DNA from: Candidatus Bathyarchaeota archaeon | GTDB taxonomy: Archaea; Thermoproteota; Bathyarchaeia; Bathyarchaeales; Bathycorpusculaceae | Assembly (NCBI GenBank): GCA_963815095.1 | Contig: CAWFFH010000003.1 | Location: 864,001 to 928,000 of the forward strand | DNA length: 64,000 nt | Direction: 5' to 3' | Part shown: positions 15,221 to 56,040 of the stretch, piece after piece | How positions within the stretch are numbered: the first letter of the stretch is position 1 | How the letters are laid out: the number at the start of each line of letters is the position of its first letter | The notes under the pieces: generated by a model | Seen by the model: the letters and a program-made list of their open reading frames with translations, nothing else | Databases searched by the model: none | Told to the model about the DNA's origin: nothing | Made by a program: the position numbers and the translations under genes

Positions 15221-15298
15221 GGGCCGATCGTCTAGCCTGGTTAGGACGTTGGCTTTACACGCCAAAGGTCGCTGGTTCAACTCCGGCTCGGCCCACCA
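15221..15298 (+). tRNA. tRNA-Val(TAC), intron-less, CCA encoded
   Basis: Cloverleaf: GGGCCGA/TCGGCCC acceptor, TTGGC-TTTACAC-GCCAA anticodon arm, GCTGG-TTCAACT-CCGGC T arm, ACCA end. Confidence 0.96.
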
Positions 15299-15460: not shown

Positions 15461-15484
15461 CGAAATGTTTTTATGTGCATCTCG
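15461..15484. promoter_or_regulatory. ModE-like operator, copy 1
   Basis: CGAAATGT-N8-GCATCTCG; 13/16 arm positions identical to the site at 18428-18451. Confidence 0.5.
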
Positions 15485-15518
15485 GCAATTTCCAGATCAA
15501 AAAGGAGAAAAACTATCA

Positions 15519-16355
15519 ATGTCAACCAAACACTCGAACAAGCCCTATCAGGGATCTTTTGTCGTTCTACTTATAATTATGTTAACCGTCACAATTATCC
15601 TGGGTGCTTCACCTCAAGTAAAAGCGCAGACAGAACCAACTGTTCTGGTAACTGGATACAATGGAACAAGCATAAACTACACATTAACTCAGTTAGAAGC
15701 GATGCCCAGCATCACCATGTACGGTGGCTTCTATCAACCTAATCAACATGTAATTAACAGTGGTTTATGGGTTGGTGTATCGCTGCTTTATCTTTGTAAC
15801 CAAGTAGGCGGCATTACCTCAACCTGCAATGTGACAGTTACAGGTCAAGGCACCAACAATTTCACTTACGAAATGGTGAATAGCGGCACCAACTTCAACG
15901 CACAATACATAACCTACAATGACATCACAGGAGTAGAGCAAAATCAAGTCCAGCCAGTCACCCTCATATTGGCATACCAAGTTAACGGCACTAACCTCCC
16001 CAGTAGCTCACTACCAGCCCCAAGATTAGTAATAGTTGGTTCTGAAGGCTTACTGATGGATGGATCAGGAGGAAGAAGCATAACGCAAGTAAACATAACC
16101 AATACTGCCCCCACACCAACACCCACCCCCGCTCCAACACCAATTCCTACTCCCACCCCCACTGCAACTCCAACCTCGACACCAACATCTACTCCAGCAC
16201 CAACTGCATCGCCAACCCCATCAGCATCTCCATCACCTACACCCACAATCCCAGAATTTCCAGCAGCCGCTACCCTCATAATCTTACTAATGGCAACAAC
16301 GACAGCATTGGCAATTTATAAAAGAAAATCAAGTCAACAACTAACTTTAATCTAG
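15519..16355 (+). CDS. Surface protein with a sulfite-oxidase/MsrP-like molybdopterin-binding domain, PT linker and PEF-CTERM sorting signal
   Basis: AGGAG RBS before ATG 15519; signal peptide; V.G....YTL.QLEAMP, W.GV.L, ILAY..NG..LP...PRLV; IPEFP + TM + KRK. Confidence 0.75.
   Translation: MSTKHSNKPYQGSFVVLLIIMLTVTIILGASPQVKAQTEPTVLVTGYNGTSINYTLTQLEAMPSITMYGGFYQPNQHVINSGLWVGVSLLYLCNQVGGITSTCNVTVTGQGTNNFTYEMVNSGTNFNAQYITYNDITGVEQNQVQPVTLILAYQVNGTNLPSSSLPAPRLVIVGSEGLLMDGSGGRSITQVNITNTAPTPTPTPAPTPIPTPTPTATPTSTPTSTPAPTASPTPSASPSPTPTIPEFPAAATLIILLMATTTALAIYKRKSSQQLTLI
16104..16247 (+). repeat. Pro/Thr-rich low-complexity linker repeat
   Basis: Encodes TAPTPTPTPAPTPIPTPTPTATPTSTPTSTPAPTASPTPSASPSPTPT. 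Confidence 0.85.
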
Positions 16356-16363
16356 ATTTAAAA

Positions 16364-16921
16364 TTATATACTATCTTTCTTTTTATTAGCTCGATTTGGA
16401 AAATGTAAATGCTGCGTACGATTAACCACTATTGATGAAATTATGCCCCCCGCCCCTCCAAAAATCAGGCTTGACGTTCCTGCAACTCCTATACCGACTA
16501 AAAGTATGTGGGCATTTTGACCTATCATACTTGTTATGTAAAAGTTCACCATGGTTTTATCAAAACTTCCAAAAGCACCAAGAACGCAACCAACCAAAAT
16601 ATTGCCCAAATGACCTCTAAAAACAACAGCTAAAACATCCATAGTTATTCCCATCGCCGCATACTCAACCACCTCTAGAAATCCCTTATCAGCCATTCCG
16701 AGTACACCTAAAAGCAATCCTGAAAGCAACCCTATGTAAATGCCTGCACCAAACTTCTGTGTTAAACCAATTCCTATTATGAAAGGGATTACCCAAACAA
16801 TCGCAGTATGTGCGGGCAAGCCAATCGGCGTTTTGAAGAAAGCTTTGAAAACGTAAACAAGGGCAGCCATAACCGACAAAAAAGAGACCTCGTAGACCAA
16901 GAAATACTTCTGACGTTTCAT
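16364..16921 (-). CDS. ECF transporter S component (substrate unknown)
   Basis: 185 aa, about 6 TM helices, P.H..I.W and K.GAG...GL.SG motifs typical of S components; no A/T modules nearby. Confidence 0.65.
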   Translation of the reverse strand: MKRQKYFLVYEVSFLSVMAALVYVFKAFFKTPIGLPAHTAIVWVIPFIIGIGLTQKFGAGIYIGLLSGLLLGVLGMADKGFLEVVEYAAMGITMDVLAVVFRGHLGNILVGCVLGAFGSFDKTMVNFYITSMIGQNAHILLVGIGVAGTSSLIFGGAGGIISSIVVNRTQHLHFPNRANKKKDSI

Positions 16922-16930
16922 AGCCTCATC

Positions 16931-17710
16931 TCAACCAGGTACACTCGATTTCAGATCTAATTTGAAATTATGATCTATGGTACCGTTAACGGCAACTAAC
17001 AACACTAAATCATCCTGAACTCTGCCACCCGTAAAATCGACGTAAAAGATGCCACTTGTGTTGCTTGTTGAGGTGACGTTGCCGCTGGGATTTCTTGGGT
17101 TAGTTGTAAAATGGAGAGAATTCAATCCGCCACCATCCTTGCCAAATTTCATAAAATAAGTATTATTTCCAAAATCATTGAATGTAGCTCCTTCTTTGTT
17201 TGAAACCTTCACATATATCTGGTCAACGCCAGGCATCATCTGAGCATTTGCCATAATGCTTGATGACTCAGCAGCTAGCGTAGTTACATAAAAACCGCTC
17301 GCTCCAGTCCCCTCCACGCGATTCGTCCATGAAAATCCCCTACTATCTTTGATGTATCCGTAAACGTGGAAGGCCGCCGTCCCATGTAAACCACTAAACG
17401 AGTAATCCACTCTTACACATGGAAAGGTAGCGTTCAAATTAGATGTCGCATTCAAATCAACAAACATAACGTAAAATTTTCCGTTACTGTTTGCATCAAC
17501 GCCTGGCATAACAGGCAACTTAGAAGCATAAGGCACCCATGTTTGAGGACCATAAAGAAAGCTCCCTTGAGAAAATGTTTGATCCAGATAATAATTTCCT
17601 CCAATAGTGTCCGCCGGCTGGCTTAAGTAAACCCATTGAACAGTAAAAACTATTAAAATCAGCAAACCAAAAACCGCAAAAGCAGCCGCCAGCTTGTACT
17701 TAAACTGCAA
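16931..17710 (-). CDS. Membrane-anchored surface protein with a methanogen-type cell-surface domain
   Basis: N-terminal TM; motifs FLYGPQTW.P, MFVDLNA, SWTNRV.G.G.SG, GGGLNSLH, TGGR..DD..LLVAVNGTI. Confidence 0.65.
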   Translation of the reverse strand: MQFKYKLAAAFAVFGLLILIVFTVQWVYLSQPADTIGGNYYLDQTFSQGSFLYGPQTWVPYASKLPVMPGVDANSNGKFYVMFVDLNATSNLNATFPCVRVDYSFSGLHGTAAFHVYGYIKDSRGFSWTNRVEGTGASGFYVTTLAAESSSIMANAQMMPGVDQIYVKVSNKEGATFNDFGNNTYFMKFGKDGGGLNSLHFTTNPRNPSGNVTSTSNTSGIFYVDFTGGRVQDDLVLLVAVNGTIDHNFKLDLKSSVPG

Positions 17711-17712
17711 TC

Positions 17713-18405
17713 TTAAGCCCTCTTAAGTGCAATCCAATAATCCTCGTGTTGCTCCACAAAAAGCACTGCTTTGCCCTGAATGAAAGAGGGGGTAGCGTTT
17801 TTTGGAATCTGCACTTTGCCTTCAATAACTGTCTTTCCTCGAAGTGTTACTACTTCGTCTATGCCTGCGTTAATGATCTCTGAAATTAATCGAACTCCTG
17901 AGAGTTCTCTATTTTTGCCTTTCAGAAGGAACCTGCCATCATTCTTCAAAGAAGCTAAACCGATACCTGCGATTGCGCCTATTATGCCACCTTCAGTTCC
18001 GCCTAAACCCTCAAAACGGATTTTGCCATTTTTTGCTACTTCTATAGCCCTCTTTTGCGTAACAACGATTGCCTTAGCATCTAAACCAAATGCCACTAAT
18101 CCAGGCGTTATCAGGTTACTCTCGGTTATAGCTAATCCTGGATCGCTTCCTTCAATAAAATCTTCCAGCATCAGCTTTTTTGTGGTGCAAAATATTTCTT
18201 CAATGGCTGATTGTGATGATTCTATATGGACTACAGCACAGCTGTTATGTGACGTAAAAGGTATTTCTGGGTGTACCAGAAGTTGGTGGCGTGTGACACC
18301 GAATATTTGGTATTTCTTTGAGAGTTCGGCGGCGATATTTCTGGCAAGCCTGCCGGTGCCTCTAGAACCCAAAATGTCAGTGTCGTCTATTCCTACATAA
18401 ATCAT
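17713..18405 (-). CDS. TiaS N-terminal-domain-like protein lacking the OB fold and Zn ribbon
   Basis: IYVGIDDTD...GTG, RHQL...IP.TSHNS, SDPG, G.G.IGA.A..G; only 230 aa. Confidence 0.7.
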   Translation of the reverse strand: MIYVGIDDTDILGSRGTGRLARNIAAELSKKYQIFGVTRHQLLVHPEIPFTSHNSCAVVHIESSQSAIEEIFCTTKKLMLEDFIEGSDPGLAITESNLITPGLVAFGLDAKAIVVTQKRAIEVAKNGKIRFEGLGGTEGGIIGAIAGIGLASLKNDGRFLLKGKNRELSGVRLISEIINAGIDEVVTLRGKTVIEGKVQIPKNATPSFIQGKAVLFVEQHEDYWIALKRA

Positions 18406-18425
18406 TTATGTGCCTCAAGTTAAAT

Positions 18426-18453
18426 ACCGTTATGTATTTTTAGGCATATCGTT
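18426..18453. promoter_or_regulatory. ModE-like operator, copy 2, just downstream of a minus-strand TATA-like box
   Basis: ACCGTTATGTA-N6-GGCATATCGTT resembles the ModE box (CGTTATAT...ATATAACG); TTTAATAG on the minus strand at about 18458-18465. Confidence 0.55.
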
Positions 18454-18720
18454 TGAACTATTAAAGTTGTTGGAAAAAACCCTACAAGCATACGAAAAAG
18501 ACTACAACTTAAGCCCCCAACCACAGAACTTACGCCAAAAGAATTACGCTCTCTAAAGAGATTCCCTCATAAAGGTCACTATAAAACGCATAAATGTAGT
18601 CATCTCTTATTCTCTACAAGCCGATTATTCGCTTGACGCGCAGAAGGTATCATATTTACCTTAGAAAAAGAGTTAAACCTAAAAGCTGATTATGGGTAAA
18701 AAAATGATTTAAGAAAAAAA

Positions 18721-19989
18721 CTATTTATGACGTTTTCTACGCAAAACAACTCCGACCAAGGCTAATATTATAACAACTAATACTGCAGCTATTGCGTAGT
18801 AAACAATGTTAGGTATCGCTGAACTTGAATTGTTTGCTGTTTGCCCAATTGCGTAAAAGTTGCCATCATATGAGCCGAAGTAGGCAATTCCGTCAACTAT
18901 AGCAGGCGATGAATAGATGTTGTCACCTGTTTTGAAGCTCCAGATTAAGTCGCCTGTTTGGGCATTAAGAGCATATGTTGTGTTAGCTAAGGTGGAACTA
19001 ACATAGACTCTATCACCTATTATTGCGGGGGCTGAAGTTATTCCTGCATCCGCACTGTAAGTCCATTTTGTAGCGCCAGTAGCTGCATCTAGAGCATAGA
19101 CATTCTTGTCAAAAGCGCCTCCAGTGAAAATTACGCCGCCTGCAAAACCAGGCGAAGCCTGAACGCATTGATCATAACCTGTGGTTTTGCTCCAAACTAA
19201 AGCGCCAGTATCAGCATTTAAGGCATAGGTTTCGTTATCAAAACTTCCAATGTAAACATTGCCATCTGCTACAACTGGGGAGGAAGCCACAACGCTTCCG
19301 GTTGTGAAATTCCATTTCAAAACACCTGTTATAGCATCAACAGCGTAAACTTTGTGGTCGTACGAGCCAAAGTAAACTATGCCATTAGATACAGCTGGAC
19401 CAGAGGTAACATAGCCACCCGTTGTAAAATTCCAAATTGGCATGCCAAGCGCGTCATCAAAAGCGTACAGTTTGCCATCATTTGAACCCGCATACAGTAT
19501 ACCATTTGAAACTGTTGGAATGCCCTCTGCTTCCCCGTCAGTAATGCACTTCCAAAGATACGCACCTGTAGTTGCATTTAACGCGTAAATAGCATGGTCG
19601 TCGGACCCAAAAAATACCATACCGTCAGCAACAGCGGGAGAAGTATAAATTTTAGCGCCAACTGAATAATTCCAGATTTTTGAGCCATCTTTGGCATTCA
19701 ATGCATAAATGTCATTGTTTGAGACGCCGAAGTAGCCTTTGTCAGAAGAAGTAAAGTAAACTATTCCGTTGACGACTGCTGGAGATGATAATACCCAACC
19801 GTTTGTGTTGAAAACCCAAAGAGTTTGGTTAGTGCTGGGTCCCGTGGCGGCCGTGTAGCCTGTGTGGGCTGGATCTGAATGGAACATCGGCCAAGACTCT
19901 GCTTGTTGAGCGTTAACCTCTAATGAAACAGATACTATAACTGAGAGAAACAAAATTGCTAAAGTAATCGCTACCAAAAATTTTTTCAA
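18721..19989 (-). CDS. Secreted, membrane-anchored PQQ-like (BamB-type) beta-propeller repeat protein
   Basis: WPMFH.D..HTG then eight SSP...G.VY.GS.D...YAL.A.TG...W repeats; C-terminal TM + RRKRHK; TTG 19989 after GGTGG. Confidence 0.9.
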   Translation of the reverse strand: MKKFLVAITLAILFLSVIVSVSLEVNAQQAESWPMFHSDPAHTGYTAATGPSTNQTLWVFNTNGWVLSSPAVVNGIVYFTSSDKGYFGVSNNDIYALNAKDGSKIWNYSVGAKIYTSPAVADGMVFFGSDDHAIYALNATTGAYLWKCITDGEAEGIPTVSNGILYAGSNDGKLYAFDDALGMPIWNFTTGGYVTSGPAVSNGIVYFGSYDHKVYAVDAITGVLKWNFTTGSVVASSPVVADGNVYIGSFDNETYALNADTGALVWSKTTGYDQCVQASPGFAGGVIFTGGAFDKNVYALDAATGATKWTYSADAGITSAPAIIGDRVYVSSTLANTTYALNAQTGDLIWSFKTGDNIYSSPAIVDGIAYFGSYDGNFYAIGQTANNSSSAIPNIVYYAIAAVLVVIILALVGVVLRRKRHK

Positions 19990-20173
19990 AATTATCCACC
20001 TTACTCCAGAATAAATAAGTCTTTTAACACTTATATTTTGTCCCTGAAACGTAAGGGTTTCTTTGTTTTTTAATTTTGGTTGTTGGGTAGATGCAATCAC
20101 ATATTTTTAATAAGCCTTCAATCGCTGAGATAATTGTTTTTAACTATCCAGTTTTATGCTGGAGGTGAAATGT

Positions 20174-54213: not shown

Positions 54214-56040
54214 TTAGCTCAACATAAGCTGACTTGCCACGTCAGCTAGTCCCAACTTTTCCAAAGTTTCTTTTTTCGGAACCCCATTCTTGTCCCAGCC
54301 ACGCTTCTGATAGTAAATATCGAGCATAGCGTCGTATTTTTCTATGTCAAGCACTGCGCCTTTTAGGGGACCTTCGGTTAGGGGTTCTTTGAACCATCGC
54401 ATTGGAGGAACATCTAATCTCCAGCTCCATTTCTCGCCGTATTCTCGCACCCAGAAAGCGCGGATTAGGGTTAGAATTCGGTCGCCAACTTGGTTTAGCT
54501 GTTCCATAGAAAAGTTCACTCCAGTCGATGCTCGCAGGTATTTTTGGTACCATTCCATCTCAAAGCCTAATGAGCCGTGGGGAAAACGGCAGACGGTAAG
54601 TGCTTCGAAGACTCCGCCTCGTAAGAGCTGGGTCTGAATTAGGTGGTCCACTTTTGCTTCGTCATATTTTTCTCTTCCAGTTTTCTGTTCCCAGGTAATG
54701 ATCCAGGCGTCTTTGTGGTGGGCGCCAATTGAGCTTGTGCCATAAGCTAATGCCATGCCTGGTGCAATGTGGCAATCATAGGCGGATACTTCTAAGCCTT
54801 TAACATGCATCGCCCATTCACTTGAGCCTTTGCCAATGGTTTCGGCTGCGGAGCGCACGCCTTCAGCTAAAACCGCGCCTAAACCACGACGATAGGCAAT
54901 ATCGTAAATCAACGCTTTGATCGCTTCAAAGTCACCCCAGCCGATCTTCTGGGGGATTAGACCTTTTTCGGAGGCTTCCATCGCAAAGCCAATGACGCTC
55001 CCGAGAGAAATGCTGTCGAAGCTAAATTCGTCTGCCAAACGGTTTAGGGTAGCGACTTGAGCAAGATCACCTAAACCGATGTTCGAGCCAAGCATAACTA
55101 CGTTTTCGTAGTCCAATTCGGATTCTTTGCCTTCGCTGTCTTTGACGACGTTGCCGCAGGTCATGTTGCACTGCGGGCATCCTCGGTTGGAAATCTTCAA
55201 CTTCTCCATCGTGAAACCGTTTATTCCTTCGGCTTTGTCGAAAACGCCTTGTCTATAGTTGTGAGTGGGGAGGCAGCTGTTTTCTTGACACCACTCAACC
55301 GTTGACATGGTGCCTTGCCGTTTCCAAAAAGAATAGAGTGGTTTTGCTAGAAGTTCTTTGTAACCGTCAACTGCCAGTTGTTTCATTTCTTCGGCGTTTG
55401 CAAGCGGAATTGGCTGGGTGCCTTCGACTACGACGGCTTTAAGGTTCTTGGAGCCCATGACCGCGCCCATGCCCGGCCGCCCGCCAGCACGCCCATTCTG
55501 CGAAACCACTGTAGCAAACCTCACAAGGTTTTCACCAGCAGGACCAATAGAAACGATGCCAGCTAACTTGGAGTATTTTTTCCTAAGTTGTGCTTCAACT
55601 TCAAACGTGCTCTTGCCCCATAAATCCGCGGCATCCAAAAACTCACAGGTTTTATCTTTGATTTGAAGTATGACAGGTTTGGAAGCTTTGCCTTCAATAA
55701 CAAATGCGTCATAGCCAGCTTTACGTATGTTCACAGCCGCCCAACTTCCAGAGTTGCCGTCGCCGTAGCCGCCGGTCAAGGGACTTTTTGAAGCAATGAC
55801 AAGTTTACCGCTGTTAGGCAACCCGATGCCCGTGAGCGGTCCAGTGGCCAAAATGAGTTTGTTTTCAGGCGAAAAAGGGTCTGTTCCCTGCTTGAGAGTG
55901 TCCCAGAGAATTTTGATTGCAAAGCCTCTGCCGCCCAAAAAATTTAACGCCAAATCTTCACTGTACATTTCAGCGACAGCCGCGCTTTTGGTTAAATCTA
56001 CCTTTAAGAAAAACCCTGTCCATCCCTTCATTATAGTCAT
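54214..56040 (-). CDS. aor: Tungsten-containing aldehyde:ferredoxin oxidoreductase family protein
   Basis: GGRG, KSPLTG, IGPAGE, GR.G.GAVMGSKNLKA, C..C...C, DYE, HVKGLE, YY..RGW. Confidence 0.93.
   Translation of the reverse strand: MTIMKGWTGFFLKVDLTKSAAVAEMYSEDLALNFLGGRGFAIKILWDTLKQGTDPFSPENKLILATGPLTGIGLPNSGKLVIASKSPLTGGYGDGNSGSWAAVNIRKAGYDAFVIEGKASKPVILQIKDKTCEFLDAADLWGKSTFEVEAQLRKKYSKLAGIVSIGPAGENLVRFATVVSQNGRAGGRPGMGAVMGSKNLKAVVVEGTQPIPLANAEEMKQLAVDGYKELLAKPLYSFWKRQGTMSTVEWCQENSCLPTHNYRQGVFDKAEGINGFTMEKLKISNRGCPQCNMTCGNVVKDSEGKESELDYENVVMLGSNIGLGDLAQVATLNRLADEFSFDSISLGSVIGFAMEASEKGLIPQKIGWGDFEAIKALIYDIAYRRGLGAVLAEGVRSAAETIGKGSSEWAMHVKGLEVSAYDCHIAPGMALAYGTSSIGAHHKDAWIITWEQKTGREKYDEAKVDHLIQTQLLRGGVFEALTVCRFPHGSLGFEMEWYQKYLRASTGVNFSMEQLNQVGDRILTLIRAFWVREYGEKWSWRLDVPPMRWFKEPLTEGPLKGAVLDIEKYDAMLDIYYQKRGWDKNGVPKKETLEKLGLADVASQLMLS

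Follow-up and report, generated by a model that had tools for sequence, protein, structure and literature searches.

A predicted ModE-controlled, ECF-type gene set linked to molybdenum and tungsten acquisition in a bathyarchaeon

Could some archaea take up molybdenum or tungsten (Mo/W) through a transporter of the energy-coupling factor (ECF) type placed under the control of ModE? The question is raised by four genes (A, B, C and D) of Candidatus Bathyarchaeota archaeon, located in a stretch of 64,000 nucleotides which was analysed as a whole and is called here the window (G000:C3:864001-928000, from a nine-contig genome of 2,692,925 bp). Mo/W limit key anaerobic reactions, such as those catalysed by formylmethanofuran dehydrogenase in every methanogen and by AORs and formate dehydrogenases in sediment archaea, and both metals are poorly available in sulfidic habitats. 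To our knowledge, the prokaryotic importers of Mo/W comprise only three families of ABC transporters (Mod, Wtp and Tup) and the MOT-type carriers. A first-pass annotation of the window had proposed a system for scavenging Mo/W, or its pterin cofactor, regulated by ModE through two 24-bp dyads near the starts of two convergent units. Both dyads are present, and the four genes agree with that description (Table 1). On balance we lean towards an accessory, ModE-repressed and starvation-induced ECF-type system for Mo/W acquisition, with both units in the ModE regulon. The evidence was obtained by computation and concerns the identity and conservation of the operators, the fold of B, the support for an interface between B and C, the family memberships of the proteins and their gene neighbourhoods.

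Table 1. Coordinates of the features of the locus (window positions)
Feature	Position	Strand	Description
Box 1	15461-15484		ModE-type dyad; CGAAATGT-TTTTATGT-GCATCTCG, the spacer TTTTATGT being the N8
Gene A	15519-16355	+	278 aa; sulfite-oxidase-like surface protein
Gene B	16364-16921	-	185 aa; divergent YkoE-like ECF S component
Gene C	16931-17710	-	259 aa; transmembrane helix 2-29 and extracytoplasmic beta-sandwich; predicted partner of B
Gene D	17713-18405	-	230 aa; stand-alone TCKD-type protein with an extra C-terminal domain of ~80 aa
Box 2	18428-18451		ModE-type dyad; forward strand CGTTATGT-ATTTTTAG-GCATATCG
TATA-like element TTTAATAG	18458-18465	-	6 nt upstream of box 2

The genes D, C and B are tightly packed, with gaps of 2 nt (D/C) and 9 nt (C/B), and they converge with A, the stop codons of A and B being separated by 8 nt. 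The gap from box 1 to the ATG of gene A is 34 nt, and 22 nt lie between box 2, which reads CGATATGC-CTAAAAAT-ACATAACG in the orientation of D, and the start of gene D. The arms of the boxes are imperfect dyads, 6 of the 8 positions being complementary in each of them. The pattern shared by both, CGWWATGTN8GCATMTCG, was matched twice in the window at up to 2 mismatches against 0.12 matches expected, a number reached in 1 of 100 shuffles. In the whole genome the two boxes are the only exact matches, one more site is found at 1 mismatch, and there are 14 sites in all at up to 2 mismatches. The sole 1-mismatch site (CGTTATGTGAAATTGTGCATAACG) lies between a MoaD-family gene and a divergent AOR gene, which is followed by a ferredoxin gene. 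One of the 2-mismatch sites is located 26 nt before the ATG of tupA in a tupA-tupB-tupC operon, whose last gene (G000:C8; locus L004, 7020-7622) encodes a 200-aa ModE homologue composed of a helix-turn-helix (HTH) and one Mop domain (ModE_repress, 80.2 bits for a cut-off of 98.5 and E 8.8e-23; Mop, 72.5 bits for a cut-off of 55). The first-pass annotation had called for such a regulator, and for a scan of the box at other Mo/W genes; it had named the lack of either as a reason to abandon the idea, and after examination neither is lacking.

According to a report on Methanosarcina acetivorans, ModE, which has a single Mop domain in that organism, requires RTTATGT-N8-RCATAAY in electrophoretic mobility shift assays (EMSA), and sites are listed there at a distance of 24-33 bp from the start codon in operons for a Mo ABC transporter, Fmd and an Fe ABC transporter (PMC12327845). 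Compared with this motif, box 2 deviates at 1 position and box 1 at 4, the spacing being identical, so the boxes agree with the published archaeal motif in arms and in N8 spacing. One exact match to the motif occurs in the genome, precisely in the moaD/AOR intergenic region, together with 5 sites at 1 mismatch that include the box of D, against none and 2, respectively, in the reversed genome used as control. The other 1-mismatch sites (C3:760589, C3:830550, C7:75972 and C8:81861) have no Mo/W neighbours. By motif, both boxes are ModE-type operators, as had been proposed, and ModE is predicted to bind to them.

To escape circularity, a matrix was made from the two window boxes alone. This matrix ranks the moaD/AOR site third (21.0 bits) and the tupA promoter fourth (18.4 bits), and it adds candidate sites at rank 7 (15.5 bits; G000:C3:411550-411573), 13 nt before moeA, and at rank 25 (13.2 bits; G000:C3:1470390-1470413), abutting the start codon of moaA and situated inside the 3' end of an upstream moaB-like gene. 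In the reversed genome the maximum was 19.1 bits, with 19 hits of at least 13 bits; as the scores at moeA and moaA fall within this range, those sites are suggestive through their position only.

The boxes are also conserved. TupA was sought in 41 genomes of the genus and is present in 16, and all 16 carry a single box at 25-65 nt before tupA, which scores 12 bits or more on the matrix of the two window boxes and has a TATA-like spacer in every case. Orthologues of D are found in just 3 of the 36 other genus genomes (G019, G028 and G022), where the A / B-C-D arrangement is retained; in G022 the D orthologue (G022:C2:270262-270952; locus L037, 7263-7953) is in two pieces, with an internal TGA (frameshift or stop), and A, B and C seem intact. 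When these three loci are taken together with seven Bathyarchaeota-type loci from a species collection, D is preceded by a box of at least 13 bits in 9 of the 10, the exception being L054, and A in all 7 of the loci where it is adjacent and its upstream region can be read. The sequence around these conserved boxes has diverged. A stands beside D-C-B in 6 of the 7 further loci, and a TATA-like TTTAATA element, in the forms (A)CTTTAATA or AATTTAATA, is conserved 6-10 nt upstream of the D box. As judged from its sequence, the TTTAATAG element would be the core promoter of D, in which case the operator would cover the transcription start; box 1 overlaps the A/T-rich core promoter of gene A. This overlap of operator and core promoter, with TTTAATA or the A/T-rich spacer as TATA box, argues for repression.

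Two further loci with related features are worth recording. A contig from another family of the class (L041, G233:C31:1-3222) carries D divergent from a short C-like open reading frame (ORF) and B, and its D/B intergenic region contains CGTTATTT-N7-GCATATCG, a comparable dyad whose spacer has one base less, to which no weight was given. The second (L052, DATGZD010000068.1) is a 5.7-kb contig labelled Candidatus Sulfotelmatobacter (Acidobacteriota) that includes both boxes and the whole A / B-C-D set, which is 62-68% identical to that of the window; this is probably archaeal DNA that was assigned to the wrong bin.

It could be argued that the dyads are core-promoter elements, that is, a TFB recognition element (BRE) and a TATA box, shared by two neighbouring units, and that the four genes are functionally unrelated. 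Both N8 spacers are rich in A/T and resemble a TATA box (TTTTATGT, and TAAAAATA in gene orientation), CGAAA resembles what we take to be the BRE consensus, and the left half of box 1 and its spacer are identical in several relatives. However, a general element would be frequent, and the numbers of exact and near matches given above for 2.69 Mb are small. Besides, the downstream arm GCATMTCG is foreign to an archaeal core promoter, the next-best sites of the genome belong to moaD/AOR and tupABC-modE, the synteny of A with B-C-D persists in all three genus genomes with D and in most of the further loci, and the arms fit the motif validated by EMSA in PMC12327845. This explanation is regarded as very improbable.

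The nature of the transported compound depends on B and its partners. The AlphaFold2 model of B (pLDDT 82.4) has six long helices and a short C-terminal one, and the top 13 matches obtained with Foldseek against the PDB are all ECF S components, in agreement with the assignment made in the first-pass annotation. The best is 5edl (E 7.1e-4), followed by ThiT, PanT, 4hzu_S (TM 0.68), RibU and BioY. Membership of a cobalt-type clade, which had been put forward as an outcome adverse to a role in Mo/W, does not emerge, the nearest solved relatives (5edl and ThiT) being of the thiamine type. On PF09819 the protein scores 17.8 bits for a cut-off of 25.2, and matches to other S-component families were not reported; since B passes no curated S-component model, it would represent a divergent new subfamily. 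It has 128 homologues, whose archaeal sources, among the matches listed, are all named Bathyarchaeota, and a precomputed PF09819 match is present in 5 of the 120 homologues listed. The description of B as a lone component holds in this lineage and fails in methanogens, where D-C-B is followed by ecfAA' and ecfT. Elsewhere in the genome there is a stand-alone ecfA-ecfA'-ecfT operon (C3:397605-400058), as well as a separate cbiMQO operon.

Gene C has no match in Pfam or NCBIfam. It has 147 homologues, of which the 120 listed share 56-93% identity, and its AlphaFold2 model (pLDDT 83.4) consists of one N-terminal helix and a beta-sandwich. A more specific fold was sought and discarded, as the best Foldseek match had E 0.014 and a TM below 0.3 and the best VIA-align score (Z 6.4) lies within the noise range; the copper-binding surface proteins MopE and CorA are among the weak Foldseek rows. 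From its model, C is a generic beta-sandwich. Profile searches of A, B and C against sequences of the PDB gave nothing meaningful. On the other hand, complex prediction of B with C gave an ipSAE of 0.68 (0.68, 0.57 and 0.69 in the individual runs) against 0.00 for the best of three controls, a mark reached by 58 of 80 solved complexes and by 2 of 110 mismatched pairs. The runs share at least 84% of contacts, and the pLDDT of the partner is at least 80. In the predicted interface the helix of C lies on residues 97-152 of B, and the loops 90-97, 208-209 and 226-231 of C lie on residues 135-149. The prediction supports binding between both proteins.

These data bear on the possibility that B and C form an importer of a vitamin-like compound (similar to thiamine or hydroxymethylpyrimidine, HMP) unrelated to Mo/W, with D as a salvage kinase and the boxes due to cross-regulation or coincidence. 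In favour of this proposal are the best fold match of B, which is the YkoE-type 5edl and then ThiT, the weak match to PF09819 in B and in a few of its homologues, and the label of thiamin/HMP permease subunit which one source gives to a B homologue. Nevertheless, the identity of B to thiamine S components is just 16-20%, relatives keep the box in front of both D and A, and it is the same box as that of tupA in all 16 genomes, and the D family is found amid tup, MoSto, MOT1 and fwd genes in 41 of 80 loci, as described below. The proposal appears improbable, and what probability a vitamin-type substrate keeps is owed to the thiamine-type relatives of B.

Gene D had been described as a truncated TiaS. 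It is instead a member of a stand-alone TCKD family of proteins of about 230-250 aa, for which 837 representative clusters were obtained at E<=1e-3 (527 when E<=1e-10 is required) and whose members are named 'ABC transporter substrate-binding protein' or 'TiaS' in the sources. The idea of a truncated TiaS was rejected on account of this large family and of a separate, full TiaS of 465 aa encoded in the genome (C4:174133-174603). D matches PF22641 (E 3.9e-4) and the C-terminal half of TIGR03280, methanogenesis marker 11 (E 2.6e-14), on which it scores better than on TiaS, and it reaches 26.7 bits on NF040849 for a cut-off of 600. PF22641 is matched by 34 of 47 family members. The family profile aligns with the TiaS structures (4rvz/3amt) with E 1e-12, over positions 2-149 only; a DDTD motif and T17 are invariant in the family and are aligned with D8-D11 and Thr18 of TiaS. 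From its sequence, D is cytoplasmic and presumably uses ATP.

The surroundings of D were studied in other lineages by scanning species-representative genomes with a D alignment, which yielded 599 stretches and 529 confirmed relatives. The best 80 were kept with 6-kb flanks, their ORFs were called and clustered, and the clusters were named by Pfam and the PDB. They come from Bathyarchaeota, Methanocellaceae, Ca. Argoarchaeum, Methanobacteriaceae, many Methanomicrobiales, two Spirochaetota and one Anaerolineae, and they are related genomes, not independent samples. Within 6 kb of D there are TupA or TupB in 26 loci, the molybdate carrier MFS_MOT1 in 13, subunits of formylmethanofuran dehydrogenase (Fwd/Fmd) in 9, a WtpA/ModA-like binding protein in 6 and a sulfite-oxidase-like (SUOX-like, PF00174) protein in 5, so that 41 of the 80 loci have at least one such Mo/W-specific neighbour. 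A homologue of the beta subunit of the Mo-storage protein (MoSto; 2ogx_B, E 2.6e-60) is found in 20 loci, directly upstream of D in 14 of them. C and/or B adjoin D in 22 loci, from Bathyarchaeota, Methanomicrobiales, Methanocellaceae and Ca. Argoarchaeum, and EcfT (CbiQ) is present in 10, which are of the D-C-B type with a fused EcfAA'. Either a Mo/W neighbour or B/C is present in 61 loci. In one contig of Methanoregula, 6.7 kb separate a D-C-B-EcfA set from a second D, which is followed by tupABC. D is among the most Mo/W-associated gene families that could be counted here.

Some recurrent arrangements around D deserve mention. In methanogens (L073, L084, L085, L088, L103, L105, L112 and others) an operon recurs in which a MoSto-beta homologue is followed by D and then by tupA-tupB-tupC; in most MoSto-D loci a single MoSto-like gene adjoins D, and D might be the partner of the MoSto-like protein. 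In the Methanobacteriaceae loci (L060-L082) a MotA/ExbB-family protein and DUF2149 precede D in 11 loci, a formylmethanofuran dehydrogenase operon follows D on the opposite strand in 7, and a FecCD/Peripla_BP_2 ABC importer is nearby in 9. A protein of 117 aa without a Pfam match (cluster c8), winged-helix-like by eye, is encoded next to D and to MOT1/MoSto genes in 14 loci (L078, L080, L092, L093, L097 and others), and is a candidate local regulator.

Related to this, D (with C and B) could be a sensing or regulatory device, for instance one that signals the Mo/W status to ModE or to the transporters. D accompanies three kinds of Mo/W transporter (Tup, MOT1 and ECF) and the winged-helix-like c8 protein, and its invariant Thr, aligned with the autophosphorylated Thr18 of TiaS, could be a switch. 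In the report on M. acetivorans, moreover, ModE neither binds nor responds to Mo in vitro, and the sensing is attributed to proposed 'other factor(s)' (PMC12327845). However, searches of the Pfam and NCBIfam type found no DNA-binding or receiver domain in D. Its C-terminal domain (80 residues) was tried as a Mop/TOBE domain and rejected, the hhalign probability against the TOBE domains of TupC-like ATPases and ModE being 0.04, and the 10 loci in which the operon includes EcfAA'T have the organisation of a transporter. A sensing device is considered quite unlikely.

Gene A encodes an N-terminal Sec-type hydrophobic signal or anchor, a sulfite-oxidase-like domain (~40-193), a Pro/Thr linker and a PEF-CTERM-like tail. 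The PEF-CTERM motif of the tail (...IPEFPAAATLIILLMATTTALAIYKRKSS) is visible, and TIGR03024 gives 14.8 bits for a cut-off of 23; the PEF letters are kept in 4 of 8 aligned proteins, the A of the window included. The Pfam model PF00174 was not detected on A itself, and the sulfite-oxidase-like assignment is borne out at the level of profiles: in hhalign, the A orthologues match small secreted proteins positive for PF00174 (probability 98.9, E 2.1e-17, 159 columns), and the profile of the latter matches solved sulfite oxidases (1ogp, E 2.5e-8). The molybdoenzymes of the sulfite oxidase family conserve a Mo-coordinating cysteine, and export with the cofactor bound takes place, as a general rule, by means of a Tat signal. 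Neither the 8 A orthologues compared nor the 5 related SUOX-like proteins have an invariant Cys, and the N-terminus of A (MSTKHSNKPYQGSFVVLL...) has no twin arginine. It follows from both features that A is not a canonical molybdoenzyme, and judging from its sequence it is more likely a cofactor-free surface domain. The genome also encodes a paralogue of A of 268 aa (G000:C1:140344-141150), which passes PF00174 with 51.6 bits, has a Cys (LYCDG) 9 residues before W-G-G-V and shows a half-box-like site 116 nt upstream, together with three further PF00174 proteins.

The properties of A and D are relevant to the salvage of a pterin cofactor, as suggested in the first-pass annotation. In such a route A would capture the free Mo or W cofactor (Moco/Wco), molybdopterin or cyclic pyranopterin monophosphate (cPMP) at the cell surface, B and C would import it in the manner of ECF transporters of other cofactors, and D would re-activate it, for example by phosphorylation. 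A has a Moco-binding fold, and as it lacks the Mo-ligand Cys and the twin-arginine signal it would reach the surface without cofactor; the solved S components of the type of B bind vitamins or cofactor precursors, and an S component and a kinase are often encoded together in salvage operons. On the other hand, free Moco is very labile, the genome has moaA, moeA and moaD (a gap in the pathway was not sought), SUOX-like secreted proteins stand beside WtpA-like oxyanion-binding proteins in 5 loci, and the recurrent partners of D (TupABC, MOT1, WtpA-like proteins and the MoSto homologue) handle oxyanions and not pterins. The salvage of pterins, which found no specific support, is therefore considered unlikely. 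These partners of D, and the SUOX-like proteins beside WtpA-like ones, lead us to consider pterin salvage much less probable than the transport of an oxyanion, whether as such or in a sulfidic or complexed form.

The ModE-controlled, ECF-type acquisition of Mo/W that we favour could proceed as follows. The ModE-like repressor encoded behind tupABC would bind the dyads, of the form CGWTATGY-N8-RCATAWCG, which overlap the putative core promoters of A and of D-C-B as they do at tupA; because of this overlap, it is proposed that both units are off when Mo/W is sufficient and on under limitation. B would be the membrane S component and would use the stand-alone EcfAA'T module encoded elsewhere. C, with one helix against B and its beta-sandwich ectodomain over the outer face of B, may act as an accessory subunit for capture or loading, perhaps comparable in role to CbiN or NikK/L of the metal ECF systems. 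A would be a cofactor-free sulfite-oxidase-like domain on the surface, concentrating or conditioning the ligand outside the cell, and D a cytoplasmic TCKD-type protein that would use ATP to handle the imported Mo/W species. Repression, the direction in which transport runs, the chemistry of D and the nature of the substrate are inferred; for the last, an oxyanion or a sulfidic form of it is the most likely. The regulatory half of the proposal is supported by motif identity, the coherence of the regulon and the phylogenetic footprint. For the functional half, the support extends to a Mo/W-linked ECF-type importer: B is an S component with an energiser, C is its predicted partner, B is encoded together with EcfAA'T in other lineages, and D, the first gene of the operon, is associated with Mo/W.

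Several observations weigh against this proposal. By score alone, the moaD/AOR site is the only one that exceeds the reversed-genome control, the sites at moeA and moaA are individually at noise level, and that at moaA is intragenic. Outside the lineage, the M. acetivorans motif has 2 sites (at up to 1 mismatch) in the 913,733 bp of the 80 D loci, and the box-based link with Mo/W is shown for this lineage alone. Neither a Mo/W neighbour nor B/C is present in 19 of the 80 D loci, several of which are short contigs. The nearest solved relatives of B are of the thiamine/HMP type, its sole Pfam hint (PF09819) stays below the cut-off, and its substrate is predicted from the gene context. The sensing step is obscure in M. 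acetivorans too, where recombinant ModE gives no response to molybdate in vitro (PMC12327845). Finally, the five D-bearing Bathyarchaeia genomes examined all have a TupA-type or ModA/WtpA-type binding protein as well. The idea that carriers of the ECF system depend on it alone for Mo/W import was rejected for this reason, and the conventional binding protein in all five points to an accessory system, which fits its patchy distribution.

A bolder version of the same proposal is that the locus encodes the first ECF importer dedicated to Mo/W, which would take an oxyanion or a sulfidic or complexed form that proteins of the ModA/TupA type cannot use, by means of a new S subfamily, a docked beta-sandwich and a SUOX-like domain, and with a hitherto unnoticed family of stand-alone TCKD enzymes performing an ATP-dependent step on Mo/W (activation, loading of a store or sensing for ModE) in methanogens and other anaerobes, beside TupABC, MOT1 and MoSto-like storage proteins. 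In this full form it is tentative, and its chances seem to fall somewhat short of even. If the reading of the locus as a Mo/W acquisition system is correct, it would add a fourth uptake route for Mo/W, would give a function to a widespread family of proteins (that of D) now 'hypothetical' or misnamed, and would offer candidates for the unknown Mo-sensing partner of archaeal ModE. As the genes are carried by cultured methanogens, the reading is directly testable; cultured carriers of D include Methanobacterium oryzae DSM 11106, Methanoculleus sediminis S3Fa, Methanosphaerula subterraneus EG and Methanocalculus spp.

With respect to the surroundings of the locus, a tRNA-Val (TAC) gene lies at 15221-15298 of the window (+), 220 nt upstream of gene A. 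The cluster was considered as a tRNA-linked island, an idea that was rejected: a tRNA adjoins the cluster in none of 8 related loci, and the tRNA-Val therefore marks no integration site. Directly upstream of the D promoter, at 18721-20100 (-), there is a gene for a surface protein of 459 aa with a PQQ-like beta-propeller and a membrane anchor at its C-terminus, homologues of which (28-33% identity) are found near D in two Methanoregula loci (L071 and L119); this may be a coincidence, such proteins being common. The tungstopterin-type AOR noted in the first-pass annotation is encoded at 54247-55365 of the window (-; G000:C3:918247-919365), has an AFOR_C match with E 2e-122 and is the third AOR of the genome. 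No ModE-type box of at least 13 bits was found near it, unlike the AOR at C3:1436822. With regard to expression, two soil metatranscriptome runs contain an identical contig of 201 nt inside gene A (15893-16093); the rest of the stretch has no RNA cover in the metatranscriptome contigs, which cannot show strand or transcript starts.

When the locus is compared with known systems, the closest regulatory parallel is the ModE regulon of M. acetivorans, as described in PMC12327845. Both share the half-site core, the N8 spacing, a single-Mop ModE behind a Mo/W ABC transporter and its role as repressor (predicted here), and the distance of 24-33 bp from site to start is similar at the transporter operons of our genome. 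The arms differ here by an outer CG (CGWTATGY), the table of targets in that paper includes neither an ECF S-component operon nor a SUOX-like surface protein, both of which have the box here, and the operator was validated by EMSA in M. acetivorans whereas those described here are predicted from sequence.

As regards transport, TupABC, WtpABC and ModABC are ABC importers of type I, whose binding protein is either soluble or anchored by a lipid and which have no S component, and the locus would represent a second, accessory route beside them; tupABC-modE is under the same operator in this genome, and Tup (26 of 80 loci) and WtpA/ModA-like proteins (6 of 80) are genomic partners of D. The metal ECF transporters CbiMNQO and NikMNQO have extra components (CbiN, NikN and NikK/L). 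Likewise, here an S component would act with a small membrane-anchored accessory subunit and an energiser of the EcfA/EcfT type, and in methanogens the D-C-B genes form one operon with ecfAA' and ecfT. The differences are that B lacks the CbiM-type N-terminus (MHIPDG...) found in the genome's own CbiM and is nearer to YkoE/ThiT, that C has a 230-aa beta-sandwich ectodomain, that the operon includes a cytoplasmic TCKD protein, and that the energising module is encoded in trans in this genome.

Concerning the remaining proteins, the N-terminal 150 residues of D align with the TCKD of TiaS, but TiaS has ~420-470 aa and D, with 230 aa, is devoid of any tRNA-binding part. A shares homology with the sulfite oxidase family (SUOX fold, PF00174) at the level of profiles and differs in lacking the conserved Cys, the dimerisation domain and the twin-arginine signal. 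The MoSto of Azotobacter has its beta-subunit homologue directly upstream of D in the 14 methanogen loci mentioned, typically followed by tupABC, and in this window the homologue is not present; we know of no counterpart of D in the Azotobacter system. In the literature searched, where subscription journals are thinly covered, neither an ECF route for Mo/W nor a Mo/W role of TiaS-like proteins is described; judging by their listings, the papers retrieved treat ABC or ECF transporters in general, one of them CbiMNQO. The operator is a new instance of the archaeal ModE box, and the novelty lies in the set of genes behind it: a new S-component subfamily, a large ectodomain predicted to dock on it, a TCKD protein and a SUOX-like surface protein, all of them under putative Mo/W control.

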